From: Nitrosococcus oceani ATCC 19707
GTDB lineage: Bacteria > Pseudomonadota > Gammaproteobacteria > Nitrosococcales > Nitrosococcaceae
Direction: 5' to 3'
NCBI RefSeq assembly: GCF_000012805.1
Contig: NC_007484.1
Location: 1,770,001 to 1,802,000, forward strand
Length of the DNA: 32,000 nt
Below, piece by piece: positions 2,738 to 14,674 of this stretch (positions within the stretch are counted from its first letter, which is position 1; each line of letters opens with the position of its first letter). The position numbers and the translations under genes are program-made. The notes below the pieces were generated by a model that searched no databases, was not told the origin of the DNA, and saw only the letters and a program-made list of their open reading frames with translations.

Positions 2738-2839
2738 CCGCAATGTTTTAATAGGACATTTTCATCTTAGCCTCTCAGGAGAAAGTAGGGTGGTTGGAGC
2801 GAGCACCGCATATGCTGAGCAACATGCCCACCGGGGCGG

Positions 2840-2867
2840 TTCAGCCACGCGCCCCCGGGAAATCCCC
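2840..2867 (+). repeat. 28-bp direct repeat, copy 1 (TTCAGCCACGCGCCCCCGGGAAATCCCC)
   Basis: Identical at 28/28 positions to 3782-3809. It is followed by a short complement of its TCCCC end (GGGGA at 2881-2885), which could form a hairpin. Confidence 0.8.
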
Positions 2868-2889
2868 TGTGATTGATCGTGGGGAACTA

Positions 2890-3768
2890 TAGTCATTTGA
2901 ATTAAGAATCGATCATGTTATAGTTTTGGGATGACTTATTCCTTAGACCTTCGTCATCGTGTTGTGTCCTTCATCGAAGAAGGCGGAAGCCAGAGAGAGG
3001 CGCAACGCTTGTTTAAAATATCCCGCAATACGATTTACCGCTGGCGCACGAGCGAAGACCTTCGCCCGAAAGTTCATGGTTCGCGTCAACGCAAGCTGGA
3101 CAAGTCTGCATTGAAACGCCACGTGCAAGATCACCCTGATGCAAAGCTTTGTGAACGAGCCGTTCATTTTGGAGTCCACACAAGCGCCATTTGGTACGCA
3201 CTTCGTTCCATGAACATCGTAAAAAAAAGCGCGTAGATATTCCCAGAGATGTAATAGGCAAAGGGCTGCGTATCTTGCCCGCTTGCGCGGCTTCTTTAAA
3301 AGCCACGGCAAAGAAAACATCGTTTACTTTGATGAGAGCGGGTTTGAGAAATACGCCTATTGTCCGCATGGCTGGGCGCCGCGCGGGCAAAAAGTATAGG
3401 GCGATGTATCGGGCAATAACCGAAAAGATGTTAATCTGATTATGGCGCAGCGCCGGGATGAATGGCTCGCGCCTGTTGTTTTTAACGGCTCGTGCAACAC
3501 GGCTTTGGTCAATACATGGATTAAGGATTTTTTGCTTAAAGAGCTGAAAAATCCCAGTGTGATCGTGATGGATAATGCGCGGTTCCACAAAAAATCAGAC
3601 ATACGGAATATCCTTGAGAAAGCAGGCCACCTCTTGCTTCCGCTACCCAAATACTCCCCTGATTTTAATCCCATTGAGCACTCCTTTGCCCTTCTCAAAA
3701 AACGAAGGCAATTCTCCGGTAAAAATATCGAAAAACTTCTAATGTCACAAAATTATTTAGAATGACTA
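2890..3768 (+). mobile_element. IS630-family insertion sequence (879 bp), decayed copy
   Basis: Terminal inverted repeats TAGTCATT (2890-2897) and AATGACTA (3761-3768). They are flanked by TA/TA (2888-2889 and 3769-3770), the target duplication typical of IS630/Tc1-mariner elements. The interior encodes an HTH plus DDE transposase. Confidence 0.85.
2931..3765 (+). pseudogene. IS630-family transposase, disrupted (frame change at an A8 run plus an in-frame TAG)
   Basis: - The N-terminal HTH part is 2931-3236.
- The catalytic part continues in the +1 frame after the A8 run at 3221-3228, reading KKARRYSQRCNRQRAAYLARLRGFFKSHGKENIVYFDESGFEKYAYCPHGWAPRGQKV.
- It then hits TAG at 3397-3399, where the other copy has Tyr (RVYG).
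- It resumes as GDVSGNNRKDVNLIMAQRRDEW...VIVMDNARFHKK...YSPDFNPIEHSF. Confidence 0.8.
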
Positions 3769-3781
3769 TAGATGTAGCCGA

Positions 3782-3809
3782 TTCAGCCACGCGCCCCCGG
3801 GAAATCCCC
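3782..3809 (+). repeat. 28-bp direct repeat, copy 2
   Basis: Identical to 2840-2867. It is followed by ATCCC/GGGAT hairpin potential (3804-3819). It lies 31 nt upstream of the left end of the tnpB element. Confidence 0.8.
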
Positions 3810-3913
3810 GCCAAGGGATGGGGCGATGTGCTGCTTCGCGTTGAAGGAATACAGGGATGTATGACGACCCCCTAGCCGAATTGCGAAGCGCAGCGGCGCA
3901 TCGAGCGCGAGGG

Positions 3914-4081
3914 CTAAGTGGCTTTGCGTTTCGCCATGAATTCGCGTTTCACGGCTTCCAAAAGCAACGTTTCTACTAAATTCGATAGCGGTCTGTTTTG
4001 CTTTTTCGCTAGCTCCACAAGGGTTGCTCGAAGCTCGGCGTTGATTCGTAAACTGAGTACTTGCTTGCGCATTGCTGTCAT
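3914..4081 (-). CDS. Ribbon-helix-helix (CopG/Arc/MetJ-like) DNA-binding protein, 55 aa
   Basis: This ORF is below the ORF-track size cutoff. The sequence is MTAMRKQVLSLRINAELRATLVELAKKQNRPLSNLVETLLLEAVKREFMAKRKAT. GAGG lies 5 nt upstream of the ATG. It has the classic beta-strand (VLSLRI), helix (ELRATLVELAKK), helix (LSNLVETLLLEAV) pattern. It lies inside the IS boundaries. Confidence 0.65.
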   Translation of the reverse strand: MTAMRKQVLSLRINAELRATLVELAKKQNRPLSNLVETLLLEAVKREFMAKRKAT

Positions 4082-4109
4082 GTATACCTCGTTGTATCAT
4101 GTATACATG
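4078..4109. promoter_or_regulatory. Repeated/palindromic putative operator between the RHH and tnpB start codons
   Basis: TCATGTATAC occurs twice (4078-4087 and 4097-4106), 19 bp apart start to start. The second copy extends to the perfect 12-bp palindrome CATGTATACATG (4098-4109). The first copy covers the RHH start codon and the second abuts the tnpB ATG. Confidence 0.4.
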
Positions 4110-5261
4110 ATAACGCAACGCGCTTACAAATTCAGGTTCTACCCAACACCTACGCAGAAGCGGCAATTGGCCCTTGAGTTTGGCCATGCCCGCTTTGTGT
4201 GGAATTGGGCCTTGGAAACCCGAACGAAGGCGTATCAAGAGCGCGGCGAGCGGCTGAATAATATCGGGCTTAGCCGCCAACTGACGGCGCTGAAAAAGGC
4301 CGAGTATCCCTGGCTGAGCGAAGCGACCGCCGGTTGCCATACCCAAAAGCTGCGGGACCAGGACACGGCCTTTAAAAACTTCTTTGCGGGCCGGGCGAAA
4401 TATCCCCGCTTTAAGCGCCGCCACCACACCCAATCGGTACGCTATCAACTCGATCAACGCCATGTGGCCAGGAATTTCAACGCCGAAAGCCAACGGCTGA
4501 GACTGCCTAAGCTCGAAGCGTTGAAACTCAAGTGGTCCCGTGATATCGAGGGTATTCCCAAAATGGTGACGGTGAGTAAAGACCCCGCTGGGCACTATTT
4601 TGTCAGCATGGCCTGTGAGGTGACTATCGTTCCCTTGCCTGCCAGAAGGAATGCCCTTGGCGTGGATGTGGGCGTGAAGGATATCGCCATCACCTCCGAG
4701 GGTTGGAAGTCCGGCGCGCCTAAATACACTGACCGCTATGCTCGGCAATTGAAAAGGGCGCAGCGCCGTCTGAGCAAGCGGCAAAAGGGATCGGGCAGGC
4801 GCTATCAACAACGCCAGCGCGTGGCCCGTATACATGCTCGGATCAAGGATAGCCGCCGGGATTTTCTGCACCAAATCTCCTCCAAGCTCATCAACGAGAA
4901 CCAAGTGATTTGCCTGGAGGATTTGCATATCAAAGGAATGTTGAGAAATCGCCGCTTGAGCAAAGCCATCGCCGATTGCGGCCTGTATGAACTGCGGCGG
5001 CAAATTGAATATAAAGCGGCGTGGACTGGCCGTGATGTGTTGATCGTGGATAGATGGGCGCCGACGAGTAAAACCTGCTCGGCCTGTGGCACGGTGCAAG
5101 AGTCCATGGCGCTGAAAGTGCGCGCATGGACTTGTGGCTGTGGCGCTAGCCACGATAGGGACATCAACGCGGCCAAAAATGTGTTGTTTTTCGGTACGGC
5201 GGGGAGCGCCGGAACCTCGAAAGCGCGTGGAGCGGTAAAACCCCCAAGGGCCGTGGCCTAG
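4107..5261 (+). CDS. tnpB: TnpB (IS605 OrfB family) RNA-guided endonuclease, apparently intact
   Basis: 384 aa from ATG 4107. The N-terminus MITQRAYKFRFYPTPTQ is typical. RuvC-like motifs are LGVDVGV, ICLEDL and HDRDINAAKN. The zinc-finger cysteines are CSACG...CGCG. The track ORF start at 3918 is an upstream extension that overlaps the RHH gene antisense. Confidence 0.9.
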   Translation: MITQRAYKFRFYPTPTQKRQLALEFGHARFVWNWALETRTKAYQERGERLNNIGLSRQLTALKKAEYPWLSEATAGCHTQKLRDQDTAFKNFFAGRAKYPRFKRRHHTQSVRYQLDQRHVARNFNAESQRLRLPKLEALKLKWSRDIEGIPKMVTVSKDPAGHYFVSMACEVTIVPLPARRNALGVDVGVKDIAITSEGWKSGAPKYTDRYARQLKRAQRRLSKRQKGSGRRYQQRQRVARIHARIKDSRRDFLHQISSKLINENQVICLEDLHIKGMLRNRRLSKAIADCGLYELRRQIEYKAAWTGRDVLIVDRWAPTSKTCSACGTVQESMALKVRAWTCGCGASHDRDINAAKNVLFFGTAGSAGTSKARGAVKPPRAVA

Positions 5262-5367
5262 CCACCGTCCGAGGACCGCGAGGAAACGCGAATTAGTCAG
5301 GCTAGCCAGGTGAGGATGGACCGAACCGCAGCTAGTCATGGCGAAACTCCAATACCGATGAAAAGTG
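5200..5367 (+). ncRNA. Putative omega RNA (reRNA) of TnpB: scaffold over the tnpB 3' end and right end, plus a flanking guide
   Basis: In characterised TnpB systems the omega RNA is encoded by the 3' end of tnpB plus the right end, and the guide is the ~16 nt beyond the right-end boundary. Here the segment 5250-5351 is the part conserved in the cargo-less copy. The 5' limit is a guess. The predicted guide starts at 5352 (ATACCGATGAAAAGTG). Confidence 0.3.
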
Positions 5368-5754
5368 ACTTAAGATTAGCAGATCCTAATTTAAAAAAGA
5401 TGATTAAAGCAGGGTGTATCCATAAACTCATTCACGGGAAGAGGACTGCCGACTTTAGACGGCAGGGGAATTCGCCTCCTCCCGTAAGTTGCGTTAGAAT
5501 GATGAGTGTTTCCGGAAGAAGACACCCCGCCGCACTAGAAGACGGGCAAGCCGTCCATTTAAGCTGACGGTTTATGACAGATATGATTCTCCCCGGCAGA
5601 AAATGGACGAGGGTTTTTCTTTTCTCAAGCATGTGAGGAGAAGGGAGATCGTTTTGCTAATTGAGAGCCAAGAATTATTCAATAGCGGCGTGTTCTGGTA
5701 GTATATTACCCTATAAAAATATCAGAGCAGCTCCCTCACTCATTTAAAGGCAGA

Positions 5755-7485: not shown

Positions 7486-8387
7486 TAGCTAAATCTATAA
7501 TTACTGATACGCTGCAACGATATTCTCAAGGGTTTCATGTTCGTTGTATTCTCTGATTTTTTTGATATTTCCGAAGTCTTTTTCTATGGGGTTAAAGTCA
7601 GGGGAATAAGGGGGGAGGAATAAAATTCCCGCCCCTGTTTTTTTGATGATTTCACGTGAAGAAACGGCTTTGTGGAACGGAGCATTATCCATGATGACAA
7701 TGTGGTTGCTGTTGAGCAAGGGGCAAAGCTCTTTTTCCAGCCATGCATTGAACACAGCCGTGTTACAGGTTCCCTCAAATAGAAACGGCGCTTCAAAGCC
7801 TTCATCCATACGGGCGGCCAATAAAGAGGTTCGCGGTCTGCGATGACCGGAGATCAGACCATAAACACGCCGCCCCTTTGGAGCGTAAGCGTAACGACGG
7901 GAAACCTCCGGCTCAAAACCGCTTTCATCAAGATAGACAAATCTTTTGCCGCGGCGGCGATAGCGTTCACGAAGGCGAAGAAAGCTCTTTCTTTTCATAT
8001 TACAGCGCTGCGTGTACCCCGTCATTTTTTTTACGGGTTAACCCCATTTTGTGCATCGCATGCCAAATACAGTAATACGAAACGCCAAAATGCCGGGCGC
8101 GTTCTTTATAGGTGAGAGCAGCCTTGTCTTCCACATGGACCCGTAAAGCCTCCCAGTCCAGCTTGTGTGAACGGCGAGGGCCGGGACGCTCGTAACACAG
8201 CGCATCATCCTGCGACAACCAGCGATAAATGCTCGCGCGGCCTACCTGAAATCTCCGGGCCGCTTCCGCCTTGCTTCCACCGCCCCTTACAAAATCGATT
8301 ACTCGTTTGCGCAAATCAATTGAACATCTCATCACAACAGTATGAATGAATATAACACAAATGTCTCAATATTTATAAATTTAGATA
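7486..8387 (-). mobile_element. IS630-family insertion sequence (902 bp), apparently intact, inserted in rlmM
   Basis: The imperfect terminal inverted repeats are TAGCTAAATCTATAATTACTG (from 7486) and the reverse complement of the 8387 end, TATCTAAATTTATAAATATTG. They match at 17/21 positions. The element is flanked by TA/TA (7484-7485 and 8388-8389). Removing the element and one TA restores the rlmM reading frame. Confidence 0.9.
7501..8335 (-). CDS. IS630-family DDE transposase encoded in two frames (HTH ORF 8000-8335, catalytic ORF 7501-8025), joined at an A8 run
   Basis: - ORF1 ends ...HKMGLTRKK, then runs out of frame.
- ORF2, in the +1 frame, reads MTGYTQRCNMKRKSFL...VYLDESGF...IVIMDNAPFH...YSPDFNPIE, a DD35E triad.
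- Dropping one A from the A8 run (+ strand T8 at 8026-8033) fuses both into a single ~280-aa protein.
- There are no internal stops. Confidence 0.85.
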
Positions 8388-10787: not shown

Positions 10788-10961
10788 TTGAAGGAGTACA
10801 GGGATATACGAGGAGCCCCTAGCGAGAATGCGAAATGAAGTGGTGCATCGAGCGCGAGGGCCAAGTGTCATGCCTTCGTCGAGGATCGCTGAGAACTGCG
10901 AATTCTCCAGGCGGATGAAGTTTTGTAGGAATAACATTGAAATCAGTCATGGCGAAATCCA
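10788..10961 (+). mobile_element. Miniature cargo-less derivative (left end + right end) of the tnpB element (PATE/MITE-like)
   Basis: 10788-10867 is 65/80 identical, ungapped, to the left end at 3841-3920. 10868-10961 aligns to 5250-5351. Shared blocks there are CGTC(C)GAGGA, GCGAATT and AGTCATGGCGAAA, ending in TCCA. There is no ORF. It is in the same orientation as the full element. Confidence 0.7.
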
Positions 10962-11005: not shown

Positions 11006-14000
11006 TCAAAGTTCCCGCAAGACTTCTTGTAAGGTTTCTATGGTGACTGGTTTGAGGAGATGACGATTAAAGCCGGCCGCCTTGGCCCGTTGCACGTCAT
11101 TATCCTGGCCGTAGCCGGTCAGGGCCACCAGAGGAAGAGTTTCCAGGCCCGGTTCCTGGCGCAGCCGCTGGGCGACCTGATAGCCATCCATATCTGGTAG
11201 ACCAATATCCAGAAGCACCACCTCCGGGTAGAACTTGAGCACCGCGTTAAAGGTCTGGTTGCCCCGGCAGATAGTCTGCACCTCATGGCCTTGGAGCCGC
11301 AGCAACATCGCCAGGGAATCGGCCACCGCTTCGTCGTCCTCAACCAGCAGGATGCGGCGGGGCGGGGTTGTGGTTTCAGCCTCCGGGAGGACCTCCTGTG
11401 GGGTCGGCGGGCCGGTTTGTTCCCCCGGCAGGGCCGGTAAACGCAACGTGAATTCACTGCCCTGACCAGGGCCGGCACTGAATCCCTCCAAGCTGCCCTG
11501 GTGGAGTTCCGCCAGCCTGCGGGCCAGGTTCAGGCCCAGGCCCAGGCCCGAGCGGTGATGAGCGACAGCGGATGGCAAGCGGTCGAAGGGTTGGAACAGT
11601 TGCGGCAACTGCTCTGGGGCGAATCCGATCCCGGTATCCCGCACCTGGATAAGGATTTGTTCCTCCACCTGGCGCGCCGTGACCGTAATGTTGCCTTCTG
11701 GCTTGGTGTAGTGGGCCGCGTTGCTCAATAAATTGGCTATGATTTGGGTCAGTCGCTCCGAGTCCGCCTCTAGGTAGAGGGGGGAGGCGGGCAAATCCAC
11801 TGCCAGTTGATGGCGGCCCCACTCGATCTGCGGGCGCGTCTGGTCAATGGCGTCCGTGATGCTGTCCCGCAATTCCAGGGTCGTTTTATTTAGTTTAATT
11901 TGGCCGCTATTGACGCGGGTCAGATTTAACAGATCATCCACCAAGCGCCCCAGGTGTTTTGCCTGACGGCCGATAAGGGCGATCCCATGCTGGGCATCGC
12001 GGGTTGCCCCGCTCTCCCGGATGAGTAGTTCGGTTGTATTGAAAATGACTGCTAAGGGATTGCGCAGTTCGTGCCCTAATAGGGCGAGAAACTCGTCTTT
12101 TTGTCGGTCTTGTGCTTGCAACCGCTTGGTTTGTTGGCTCAATTTCTGGGTGAGGTGCTGTTGCCTCTCCTCGTTTTCCTTGCGGTGGGAAATATCCACG
12201 AAGGTGACGATCAGGCCAATAACATCCTCCTCCGGGTTTCGATAGGGATGGATGCGTACCAGGTACCAGGGTCCTTGCTGGTGTCTGAGTTCCCGCTCGA
12301 TGGGCATAAGAGTATGCAGCACGCGGCGAGTGTCCGCTTCGAACTGGTTGTAGGTAAGGCGATCAGTGAAATCGGTAATGGGCCGGCCGTAATCGTGGGT
12401 AGTGATGGGGAACAGCTTGGTGACCGGCGGCGTGAAGCGGTGGATATTCAATTGGCGGTCGAGAAACAGGGTGCCGATTCCCGTGGAGGCCAGGAGGTTT
12501 TCCATATCACTGCGGGCCCGGGAGGTTTCCTCAAGTTTGGTCTTGAGCTCGTTATTGACCGTATGGAGCTCCTCATTGATACTTTGAAGTTCCTCTTTAC
12601 TGGTTTCTAGCTCCTCGGCGGTGGAGCGGTATTCCTCGTTGAGGCTTTGGAGTTCTTCGTTGGCCGCCCGGAGATTTTCGCTGTCCGTTTCGGCCTGCTT
12701 CTGTCTCGCGTGGAGTTGCATGCGTGCTTGCTGCAACTCCTCCTGGAGATGGTGCGCCAGGGGGAACGATGCGGTCTCCTCGGATAGGGCTTGTTCCACG
12801 GAAGACGACTCCTCATCCCCCTCCAGGAATATCACCAGGGCGATTTTTTCCTGGTCCGCCGCCGCCCGTCGGGGCTGCGCTAGGACCGCCACCTGCCGGG
12901 GTGTTCCGTTGAAGGGGATGGGCGTGAAGGGGGAGAGGCTGGGCTTGTTCTTTTCGAAGGCATGGTAGAGGGCCATGCTTAGGGCGGCTTGCAGGGCCGG
13001 GCGCACCAGCGTCATGATCTCCTGGCTAGGAGATCCGCCAGCGGGCTGGAGGAAACGCCCCACGTTATTCGAGAGATGGAGCACCTGGTGGCGCTCGTTC
13101 ACCAGGAGACTGGGGGGGGCGAATTCTTCCAGGAGTTGGCGGTGGACATGGGCGGAGGTAGGGACCGGAGACTCGGACAATGGAATAAGTGTCCGAGTCC
13201 GGTCAGGCACGGCAAATAGAGAGGGGATCGGCGGCCTTTGGCCCAGAGTTTGCTGCGCTTGGAAGAGATAATGGGATGGCTCGATGGTCCGAAAGTTTTC
13301 CCCCTCGGCGCTCTCGGCGTTGCCGAGAAAGAGGTAGCCCCCTCGGCGCAGCCCGTAGTGCATGATATCAAAGGCCTGGTCCTGCAAGTCCTGGTCGAGA
13401 TAGATCAGCAGATTACGGCAAGAGATGAGGTCGAGACGGGAGAAGGGGGGGGCCTGCAACAGGCTGTGGACGGCAAAGAGAACACAGTCACGGACTTCCC
13501 CTATGAGGCGGTAGTGGTTGCCTTCCGCCCGGAAGTACCGGCGCAGGCGTGCATCGGTGAGATCGGCCTTGATGGCGGAGGGGTAGTAACCTGCTCGAGC
13601 TGTGGCCAGGGCCCCTTTGTCCAAGTCGGTGGCAAAGATTTGGATATCGGTGGGCGGCACCCCCCGCCGCCCGGCTTCTTCCAGCAGCAGAATCGCCAGG
13701 GTGTAGGCTTCCTCGCCTGTGGCGCAACCGGGCACCCAGGCCCGCAGCGGGGTGTCCGCCGCTTTTTCCTCGAATAGCCGGGGGATGATCTGCTTGCTGA
13801 GCGTTTCCCACGCTTCCGGGTCCCGGAAGAAGGCGGTGACCGAGACTAGGAATTCTTCAAAGAGGGCCTGGGACTCTTCCGGAGTTTGGCGGAGAAAATT
13901 AAGGTAGTCGTTCAGGGTCCGCTGGTGCTGGATTTGCATCCGGCGGGCCAAGCGGCGCAGTATGGTGGGGCGTTTATACTTAGAAAAATCATAGCCTTGC

Positions 14001-14674
14001 TTCCTTTGCAGATGGGCAAAGATGCTCTTGAGTAGAGAATCCTTGTTCTGAATCTGCGTCTCGTCCGCGAGTTTTTCGTAAATATGGCGCTTACCTTCAA
14101 TCAGCTCGGGCAGACGCTGGGCCAATTGCCGCGTGGGAAGCACGAAGTCGACTATCCCGGTGGCCATGGCGGCCCGGGGCATGCCGTCGAAGCGGGCCTC
14201 GGTGGGGAGTTGCACCAGGATAAGGCCCCCTTGCTCCTTGATGGCCTTGACGCCGACAGCGCCGTCCGAGCCGCTGCCGGAGAGAATAATAGCGAAGCCG
14301 TCGCCGTATTGCTTGGCCAGTGAACGGAAGAACGTATCAATAGGCGCTCGTTGTCCCTGCGGTTGCTCGAAGGGGAAGGCGCCTATATGGCTGTCCGTAA
14401 GCTCGAGTTGTTGGTTGGGAGAAATGACATAGACATGGTTCGGCTCAAGCGCGCAGTTGCCCTGCACTTCCTCCACCGGCATGGGGGTCTTCCGGGCGAG
14501 GATGGACGCTAGCTCGCTGCGGTACTCCGGGTCAAGGTGAATAATGACTACAAAGGCGACTCCCATCTTCTCGGGCAGGGCTTCAAAGAATGTCTCTAAG
14601 GCTTCGATGCCGCCGGCGGAGGCGCCGATGCCCACAATGGAGAATGGTGGAGAATCCGGCTTTTTAAGCCTCAT
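11006..14674 (-). CDS. CheB-methylesterase / CheR-methyltransferase / PAS / coiled-coil / PAS / HisKA-HATPase / receiver hybrid sensor kinase
   Basis: 1222 aa. The domains read by eye are:
- CheB-like: IVGIGASAGGIEALETFF...GSGSDGAVG.
- CheR SAM site: LRAWVPGCATGEEAYTLAILL.
- A long Glu/Leu coiled coil.
- H-box: FLALLGHELRNPL.
- ATPase G-boxes: DTGIGF and GLGLGL.
- C-terminal receiver: ILLVEDDEAVA...LLDIGLPDMDGY...K. Confidence 0.9.
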   Translation of the reverse strand: MRLKKPDSPPFSIVGIGASAGGIEALETFFEALPEKMGVAFVVIIHLDPEYRSELASILARKTPMPVEEVQGNCALEPNHVYVISPNQQLELTDSHIGAFPFEQPQGQRAPIDTFFRSLAKQYGDGFAIILSGSGSDGAVGVKAIKEQGGLILVQLPTEARFDGMPRAAMATGIVDFVLPTRQLAQRLPELIEGKRHIYEKLADETQIQNKDSLLKSIFAHLQRKQGYDFSKYKRPTILRRLARRMQIQHQRTLNDYLNFLRQTPEESQALFEEFLVSVTAFFRDPEAWETLSKQIIPRLFEEKAADTPLRAWVPGCATGEEAYTLAILLLEEAGRRGVPPTDIQIFATDLDKGALATARAGYYPSAIKADLTDARLRRYFRAEGNHYRLIGEVRDCVLFAVHSLLQAPPFSRLDLISCRNLLIYLDQDLQDQAFDIMHYGLRRGGYLFLGNAESAEGENFRTIEPSHYLFQAQQTLGQRPPIPSLFAVPDRTRTLIPLSESPVPTSAHVHRQLLEEFAPPSLLVNERHQVLHLSNNVGRFLQPAGGSPSQEIMTLVRPALQAALSMALYHAFEKNKPSLSPFTPIPFNGTPRQVAVLAQPRRAAADQEKIALVIFLEGDEESSSVEQALSEETASFPLAHHLQEELQQARMQLHARQKQAETDSENLRAANEELQSLNEEYRSTAEELETSKEELQSINEELHTVNNELKTKLEETSRARSDMENLLASTGIGTLFLDRQLNIHRFTPPVTKLFPITTHDYGRPITDFTDRLTYNQFEADTRRVLHTLMPIERELRHQQGPWYLVRIHPYRNPEEDVIGLIVTFVDISHRKENEERQQHLTQKLSQQTKRLQAQDRQKDEFLALLGHELRNPLAVIFNTTELLIRESGATRDAQHGIALIGRQAKHLGRLVDDLLNLTRVNSGQIKLNKTTLELRDSITDAIDQTRPQIEWGRHQLAVDLPASPLYLEADSERLTQIIANLLSNAAHYTKPEGNITVTARQVEEQILIQVRDTGIGFAPEQLPQLFQPFDRLPSAVAHHRSGLGLGLNLARRLAELHQGSLEGFSAGPGQGSEFTLRLPALPGEQTGPPTPQEVLPEAETTTPPRRILLVEDDEAVADSLAMLLRLQGHEVQTICRGNQTFNAVLKFYPEVVLLDIGLPDMDGYQVAQRLRQEPGLETLPLVALTGYGQDNDVQRAKAAGFNRHLLKPVTIETLQEVLREL

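Follow-up and report, generated by a model that had tools for sequence, protein, structure and literature searches.

In this study, we identified a gene for an Arc-like ribbon-helix-helix (RHH) protein inside a TnpB element of Nitrosococcus oceani ATCC 19707 that lacks tnpA. The element lies in a window of 32,000 nt (NC_007484.1, positions 1,770,001 to 1,802,000; positions below are counted from the first nucleotide of this stretch), and its RHH gene is divergent from tnpB. The RHH protein is probably an autoregulatory repressor of tnpB and omega-RNA expression, a reading supported by the conserved gene order, by purifying selection, by palindromes that cover the predicted -10 elements, and by experiments on analogous proteins. 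IS605-family elements carrying Arc were described between 2024 and 2026; the kind is thus known, and the N. oceani element is a new example from a different lineage.

The ribbon-helix-helix gene and its mobile unit

A preliminary description of the window, made from its letters, had noted a hidden 55-aa RHH open reading frame (ORF) at 3914-4081 on the minus strand with a GAGG motif 5 nt upstream, and had considered the long ORFs across the region spurious. The ORF is confirmed from the sequence and encodes MTAMRKQVLSLRINAELRATLVELAKKQNRPLSNLVETLLLEAVKREFMAKRKAT (55 aa); GAGG (the complement of 4087-4090) precedes the ATG of M1 by 5 nt, and the spurious long ORFs (3783-5339, minus strand; 3918-5261, plus strand) exist. 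The start codon is ambiguous, since a second in-frame ATG, M4 (4070-4072), aligns with the relatives and is used by NCBI, where the resulting 52-aa version is named CopG family transcriptional regulator. M4 abuts the predicted -35 element of the tnpB promoter, and many relatives have an analogous MVTTM... doublet, four codons apart; the gene might produce two RHH isoforms, or the choice of start might be regulated. Two public contigs, both from N. oceani (GCA_007990675.1 and strain C-27, GCA_000740735.1), encode exactly this 55-aa protein.

A Pfam search of the ORF returned RHH_5 (E = 5.7e-5) and, more weakly, RHH_1, CcdA, and HicB. The AlphaFold2 model, built from a 68-sequence alignment, has a mean pLDDT of 84.8 and consists of an extended N-terminus and two helices (residues 15-27 and 32-54). 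Nearly all of the top 50 PDB matches in Foldseek are RHH proteins (TM 0.65-0.85), including CopA_SO, ParD, Arc (1par), and CopG (1ea4), together with ORF56, AmrZ, TacA, and KacA; the PDB entries 6iya and 6xrw are in the same TM range. The E-values are just 0.04-0.5, which a protein of this length (55 residues) would be expected to give. When PDB sequences were searched with the RHH profile, the matches were all insignificant (best E = 0.05-0.7), ArtA being a weak one. The RHH fold read from the sequence in the preliminary description is thus borne out by structure prediction, and the protein most likely forms dimers.

The core of the gene (codons 1-42) keeps its amino acids while its synonymous sites vary freely (codon identity 0.51). 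In 13 moderately diverged pairs of tnpB-linked homologues, where dS is informative, dN/dS is 0.06-0.28, and an intact ORF was found at 38 tnpB-linked loci, which range from 29 to 100% identity. The minus-strand ORF is a real RHH gene under purifying selection.

A search with the single 55-aa sequence returned two proteins, and a five-sequence profile returned 86 relatives, which occur several per genome in Nitrosococcus species and Nitrosoglobus. RHH homologues are located divergently 25-40 nt upstream of tnpB in N. wardiae, N. watsonii, a betaproteobacterial metagenome-assembled genome, and a Logan contig whose sequence stops 69 nt into tnpB. Scanning metagenomes with the RHH profile yielded 80 loci, 79 of them with a callable ORF, and a divergent tnpB was found at the same distance in 35 of the 79. 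The linkage to tnpB and the purifying selection that the preliminary description had suggested examining are both present. The RHH-linked TnpBs in metagenomes include ones merely 33-35% identical to the TnpB of the window. In a TnpB-profile scan of genome contigs, the 80 loci listed reach at most 58% identity and do not include Nitrosococcus, the close Nitrosococcus relatives having been retrieved individually; among these 80, RHH is found only in the closest (L005), so the RHH-tnpB association is clade-specific. A tblastn search of RHH against plasmid and phage collections gave no match.

Close RHH relatives also occur outside TnpB elements, in varied contexts (L095, L175-L182; L096; L100; L148). 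Some are divergent from a parA-parB operon, one such protein being found in 112 index blocks, and others adjoin an HNH_3/NUMOD4 homing endonuclease, a T5orf172/MUG113 protein, or phage Mu F. The best RHH-profile scores in a library of 1.84 billion belong to proteins of 100-350 aa with two to six tandem RHH units (P0207-P0218).

Two copies have lost one of the two genes. The copy in N. halophilus Nc 4 (L085, 2300-2500) has an internal deletion of ~100 nt that removed the RHH core, and it retains the left end (LE), the promoter, the tail repeat, and a full-length intact tnpB; the genome also holds at least three intact RHH paralogues (P0127, P0130, and P0145). Loss of the ORF from other copies, which according to the preliminary description would speak against a dedicated partner, was seen in this single case, and intact copies are the rule. 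The reverse situation is a repressor-only relic in N. oceani GCA_000740745.1 (L169, 1700-2330), which consists of an LE, an intact 50-aa RHH gene whose product is 70% identical, and the promoter region. Its tnpB is interrupted by TAA at codon 4, and a deletion beginning near codon 56 reaches into the hairpin of the right end (RE), of which the last 45 nt remain. The relic occupies a fixed site, with a peptidyl-prolyl isomerase gene on one side and a gene for a class I aminoacyl-tRNA synthetase (Pfam tRNA-synt_1c) on the other; it is found in other N. oceani strains, and its RHH protein is present on nine contigs. These two copies show that RHH and tnpB can decay independently, which is consistent with a repressor acting in trans.

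TnpB has the motifs LGVDVGV, ICLEDL, HDRDINAAKN, and CSAC..CGC. D187 (GVDVGV), E271 (LEDL), D352 (HDRDINAA), and the four Cys show no variation among 20 aligned homologues, in keeping with the catalytically intact appearance noted earlier. The Pfam domains HTH_OrfB_IS605, OrfB_IS605, and Cas12f1-like_TNB (PF12323, PF01385, and PF07282) were all detected far above their cut-offs, and the NCBIfam model guided_TnpB scores 340 bits against a cut-off of 100. The best specific NCBIfam model is IS200_TnpB with 381 bits, which is under its strict cut-off of 425, and IS607_TnpB scores 195 bits; by these scores, TnpB is nearer to the IS200/IS605 type than to the IS607 type. At E <= 1e-30, TnpB has 6,758 homologues.

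A second full copy of the element (L001) was found at another locus in N. oceani C-27. It is 1,511 nt long and 99.87% identical to window 3842-5352, with two substitutions, both within tnpB. Its flanks are unrelated to those of the window copy on the left and right, with a GATase_4 gene on one side and an HSP20-Lon pair on the other. This match defines the unit boundaries as 3842-5352; the limits proposed earlier, 3841-5351, were nearly right. Copies at two different loci have identical limits, and the RHH gene is therefore inside the mobile unit, as had been proposed; the whole unit, RHH gene included, has transposed recently. The proposal had been based on a homology break near the RHH stop codon (3914-3916) in comparison with a cargo-less mini-element, and this break also stands, as the similarity stops at 3920, 4 nt into the ORF. 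The mini-element contains neither RHH nor tnpB nor the internal inverted repeat described below, and its LE is 81% identical to that of the element. It is situated ~30 nt upstream of the start of a sodium:solute symporter gene.

Further diverged copies are present in three other Nitrosococcus species, and the right terminus, ending in GGCGAAACTCCAA, is common to those of N. halophilus, N. wardiae, and N. watsonii. The left junction has (T)TGAAGG in common among six insertions, which leaves the exact cleavage point and the transposon-adjacent motif ambiguous. No target-site duplication was found in the flanks of the element, and the flanking DUF2141 protein, used as a probe for an empty site, led back to the same contig and no other. 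The LE hairpin shows compensatory changes in three of five pairs across six LEs, and the single-sequence fold energy of the LE is no better than that of shuffles (z = -0.65). For the RE, a consensus fold of four Nitrosococcus copies has 41 pairs, two of them with compensatory changes, the informative substitutions being few, and the single-sequence fold has an energy of -59 kcal/mol (z = -1.3). Position 5200 is the nominal 5' limit of the predicted omega-RNA scaffold, and the guide is predicted to start at 5353. No RNA family in Rfam matched in the element, either at the gathering threshold or at E <= 1.

In agreement with the preliminary description, no Y1/HUH TnpA and no serine-recombinase or resolvase domain was detected in any substantial ORF of the window, the sole transposases of which are two IS630 copies. 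No tnpA was found beside RHH in the tnpB-linked loci examined either. Because Y1 TnpA is missing from both element and window, the element is non-autonomous, and a transposase encoded elsewhere would have to move it. By its sequence, it is classified as a non-autonomous, IS1341-like IS200/IS605-type TnpB element. The first IS630-family copy (2837-3809) adjoins its left end and contains an HTH ORF (2931-3236) and a truncated DDE_3 ORF (3442-3765), bracketed by a 31-nt direct repeat (2837-2867 and 3779-3809, 97% identical). The second, on the minus strand (7501-8335), coincides with a contig break in a public draft assembly.

Table 1 Features of the TnpB element and the related mini-element (window positions)
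Feature	Position	Strand	Description
Whole mobile unit, 1,511 bp	3842..5352	+	tnpA-less IS200/IS605-type TnpB element with arc-like RHH gene
LE	3842..3913	+	Putative subterminal hairpin 3849-3853/3858-3862 and second imperfect stem
Arc-like RHH gene	3914..4081	-	55 aa from M1, 52 aa from M4 (4070-4072)
Internal inverted repeat	3928..3950	.	RHH codons 44-52 (KREFMAKR); reverse complement = GAAACGCGAATT+CATGGCGAAAC
Divergent promoter/operator region, 41 bp	4072..4112	.	Predicted promoters and candidate operator sites
Predicted tnpB promoter	-35 4072-4077; -10 4095-4100	+	-35 TTGCTG, 17-nt spacer, -10 TATCAT, 6 nt to ATG 4107
Predicted arc -10	4112-4107	-	TATCAT; mirror TAnCAT overlapping tnpB codons 1-2
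tnpB, 384 aa	4107..5261	+	RNA-guided endonuclease, intact RuvC D-E-D triad and zinc ribbon
RE and predicted omega-RNA scaffold	5200..5352	+	Segment 1 5283-5294, terminal hairpin 5295-5336, segment 2 5337-5347, last 5 nt TCCAA
Cargo-less mini-element	10788..10961	+	174 nt: LE 80 nt and RE ~94 nt, same family

The predicted divergent promoter region and the proposed repression

The start codons of RHH and tnpB are separated by 25 nt when counted from M1, and by 25-34 bp overall. Repeats had been pointed out in 4078-4109, and two kinds are present: the direct repeat TCATGTATAC (4078-4087 and 4097-4106) and an 18-bp perfect palindrome, TATCATGTATACATGATA, at 4095-4112, which spans the tnpB start codon. 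A 10-bp inverted repeat like that of this region was reached by none of 200 shuffles. Among 22 unique intergenic regions of related elements, about 8 have perfect inverted repeats that differ significantly from shuffles.

Anchoring 23 distinct elements on the tnpB ATG gave the consensus ccaTtGc..tca.......gTTgTgtTA.gaT....gcATG.TAaCACaAC. It can be read as a -35-like TTGcnn abutting the RHH start codon, a 17-nt spacer, an extended -10-like TGtTAnnnT, 6 nt, and ATG. The two TATCAT -10 hexamers of the window element are the two halves of the 18-bp palindrome. No Shine-Dalgarno sequence precedes tnpB in any member of the family, and by standard sigma-70 geometry transcription would begin at the A of the ATG; tnpB mRNA is thus predicted to be leaderless. 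Transcription is predicted to start at 4107 for tnpB and at ~4100 (minus strand) for arc, with leaderless translation of tnpB. The predicted DNA-reading residues of the RHH protein in the window are S10/R12/N14, and the residues at these positions shift with the repeat: N-R-D accompanies GTGTTA/TAACAC, S-R-N, as in the window element, accompanies TCATGTATAC/GTATACATGA, and T-R-T accompanies ATCGTACTA/TAGTACGAT. This co-change of the repeat sequence and the alternate residues of the beta-strand is suggestive, although the sample is small.

We propose that RHH dimers occupy the palindrome and the repeats in the 25-34 bp that separate the two start codons, a stretch that would comprise two overlapping back-to-back promoters. 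One would drive a leaderless tnpB transcript whose 3' end also provides the omega-RNA, and the other would drive the RHH gene. Binding would repress tnpB and omega-RNA, autoregulate the repressor, and keep nuclease activity low. Of this scheme, the binding to DNA, the repression, the positions of the transcription starts, and the leaderless translation of tnpB are inferred.

Several observations weigh against this model. All Pfam and PDB sequence matches of the RHH protein are below the curated cut-offs. The predicted -35 of tnpB matches at just three of six positions, and a generic sigma-70 scan of 3700-5500 detected no promoter at its thresholds, which is why the promoter was derived from family conservation. 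About half of the related intergenic regions have no significant perfect inverted repeat, and L085 of N. halophilus retains an intact tnpB although its RHH core is gone. The likeness to the published Arc proteins is one of fold and gene arrangement, and the Arc of P. xylanilyticum reads DNA with N5/N7/T9, whereas S/N-R-N/D is predicted in the present clade (S10/R12/N14 in the window protein).

The preliminary description had offered two roles for the RHH protein, a repressor or an antitoxin-like partner; the former is the best-supported reading, and the latter is improbable. An antitoxin-like protein would bind TnpB or the TnpB-omega-RNA complex and block the nuclease, in line with a proposal that Altae-Tran et al. 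(2023) made for an archaeal clade on the basis of AlphaFold co-folding. The best Foldseek matches do include antitoxin DNA-binding domains (CopA_SO, ParD, TacA, and KacA), and a short basic C-terminal tail is conserved. However, RHH and tnpB are divergent and not co-transcribed, and the RHH protein (52-55 aa) ends ~10 residues after helix 2 with no toxin-binding extension. The tail is conserved at the nucleotide level, synonymous sites included, and two RHH-tnpB clades are tail-less. The D-E-D triad of this recently mobile element is canonical, unlike the rearranged site of the archaeal clade. Downstream of RHH, no toxin gene was found; the 72-nt LE is followed by the flank.

A function in transposition, in which RHH would bind the element ends or subterminal repeats and help or restrain a TnpA acting in trans while leaving transcription uncontrolled, would fit with the 3' end of the RHH gene being an inverted copy of RE sequences, and RHH proteins acting at DNA-processing sites are exemplified by TraY, MobC, and ArtA. 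We regard it as quite improbable: the strongest palindromes are between the two start codons and not at the ends, the internal inverted repeat and the RE segments are unlike the intergenic repeats in either clade, the mini-element has ends without RHH or the internal repeat, and the ChIP peaks of published Arc are at the promoter. The least probable reading, and a very remote one, is that the ORF is a chance or decaying frame conserved merely through overlap with cis-acting DNA of the element. The nucleotide-level constraint on the last ~8 codons and the copy without an RHH core point in that direction, but the dN/dS and codon identity of the core, the confident prediction of the RHH fold, and the intactness of the ORF in tnpB-linked loci and even in the relic with a destroyed tnpB oppose it; dN/dS and the predicted fold effectively refute it. 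Repression of the divergent promoters remains our preferred explanation.

An internal inverted repeat of the right end

The 3' part of the RHH gene contains an internal inverted repeat (IIR) of RE sequences. In the RE, GAAACGCGAATT (5283-5294), a 42-nt hairpin (5295-5336), and CATGGCGAAAC (5337-5347) are followed by TCCAA and the end of the element. An ungapped search for inverted repeats between LE and RE was marginal, and the relation became clear once a single long insertion, the RE hairpin, was allowed. The score of the match has z = 10.1, and none of 200 shuffles reached it. The LE reaches 72-130 nt past the RHH stop codon, so this inverted repeat is internal.

The IIR-RE relation is also present in other Nitrosococcus copies. 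The majority metagenomic clade has the same architecture with an entirely different sequence: the protein tail TEPKNRRG, at the end of the ORF, is encoded by GAACCGAAAAACCGGCGCGGAT, and this corresponds to RE segments that likewise enclose a hairpin and stop 5 nt short of the RE terminus. In N. wardiae, a synonymous TTC-to-TTT change in the RHH tail is accompanied by the matching C-to-T change in the RE. Synonymous-site conservation is 0.84 in the tail codons versus 0.51 in the core codons, indicating a constraint on the nucleic acid. The relation is absent in the two RHH clades without the tail and in 78 RHH-less TnpB relatives (median z 0.5), and the latter result led us to reject the IIR as a general LE/RE feature of TnpB elements. 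We also considered the conserved tail (PKNRRG or KREFMAKRK) as a motif for protein interaction, but the conservation of its synonymous sites and the existence of tail-less clades weaken this idea.

Cofolding of the plus-strand IIR with the predicted omega-RNA scaffold gave a three-way junction with a ddG of -19.5 kcal/mol, compared with -7.4 +/- 3.1 kcal/mol for shuffles. The mini-element does without the IIR, which argues against a requirement for mobility and favours a role at the level of expression. Tentatively, and with considerable doubt, we suggest that the IIR is a cis element coupling the arc gene to the guide RNA, possibly forming, together with leaderless tnpB, a second layer of control at the RNA level. 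It might serve as an anti-omega insulator, in which a read-through transcript entering from the left, outside the control of the RHH-regulated promoter, would pair with its own omega-RNA scaffold and inactivate it. Alternatively, LE and RE might be brought together if this pairing took place in single-stranded DNA. As far as the searchable literature shows, IIR-RE complementarity appears to be undescribed.

Elsewhere in the window, the minus strand at 11006-14674 encodes a fusion protein of 1,222 aa with CheB methylesterase, CheR methyltransferase, PAS, HisKA/HATPase, and receiver domains.

Significance and comparison with known systems

TnpB elements are the ancestors of Cas12 and are being made into compact genome editors, and self-restraint of the nuclease is therefore of current interest. 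The present locus adds a gammaproteobacterial, tnpA-less clade to the Arc-carrying IS605-family elements, one found in Nitrosococcus and Nitrosoglobus as well as on many metagenome contigs from wastewater and soil. It offers a set of natural experiments (a recently transposed copy, a cargo-less mini-element, a repressor-less copy, and a repressor-only relic) and a compact 41-bp promoter/operator with clear predictions, namely transcription starts at 4107 and ~4100 and binding to TATCATGTATACATGATA. Should the complementarity of the arc tail to the omega-RNA have a function, the element would exemplify how a transposon insulates the production of its guide RNA from host read-through.

The preliminary description was not aware of any RHH partner described in IS200/IS605 or TnpB systems; the novelty implied by this does not hold. 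In IStrons, Zedaveinyte et al. (Science 2024) had noted an Arc-like RHH ORF, and they found hundreds of homologues linked to TnpB. Recently, Moon, Zedaveinyte, Wiegand and Sternberg (bioRxiv 10.64898/2026.09.24.754181, 28 Sept 2026) found by chromatin immunoprecipitation sequencing (ChIP-seq) that the Arc of IS605-family elements binds the intergenic divergent promoter; in the same work, Arc represses a tnpB-promoter reporter, and elements with only arc and tnpB are included. A pairing of RHH/MazE with TnpB in archaea was reported by Altae-Tran et al. (PNAS 2023, PMC10691335) and interpreted as a toxin-antitoxin system.

The N. oceani element resembles the Arc-carrying IS605-family elements in having an RHH gene for a protein of ~50 aa within the transposon limits, beside and divergent from tnpB, and in having an intergenic region predicted to contain two opposing promoters with repeats over their -10/-35 elements. 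In both, the gene is often unannotated, elements with only arc and tnpB exist, and repression of tnpB with autoregulation is proposed. The published examples are clostridial (P. xylanilyticum and C. botulinum) and often have tnpA co-oriented with arc, whereas the present one is gammaproteobacterial and lacks tnpA. Its intergenic region is just 25-34 bp, with tnpB predicted to be leaderless, and the inverted repeat between the 3' end of arc and the RE is not mentioned by Moon et al.

The archaeal RHH/MazE-TnpB pairs likewise link a small RHH protein to tnpB, and the archaeal TnpB has a long 3' untranslated region. There, the RHH/MazE gene is upstream and co-directional in a putative operon, and TnpB is immobile with a rearranged RuvC-III (D to H). 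The N. oceani element has none of these traits, as its genes are divergent, D352 is canonical, the element was recently mobile, and the host is a gammaproteobacterium. With P22 Arc, CopG, omega, and the N-domains of RHH antitoxins, the RHH protein shares the fold, the small size, and palindromic or tandem repeats overlapping promoter elements; it differs from these classical RHH repressors in showing no significant sequence similarity to them and in being encoded by an insertion sequence. Finally, the element is like IS1341-type or solo-tnpB IS200/IS605 elements and their MITE-like derivatives (PATEs) in having tnpB only, putative subterminal hairpins, no apparent terminal inverted repeats, and no target duplication seen in its flanks; it is also multi-copy and accompanied by a cargo-less mini-element in the same genome. 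It is distinguished from these elements by its additional regulatory gene and by the subterminal inverted copy of RE sequences.

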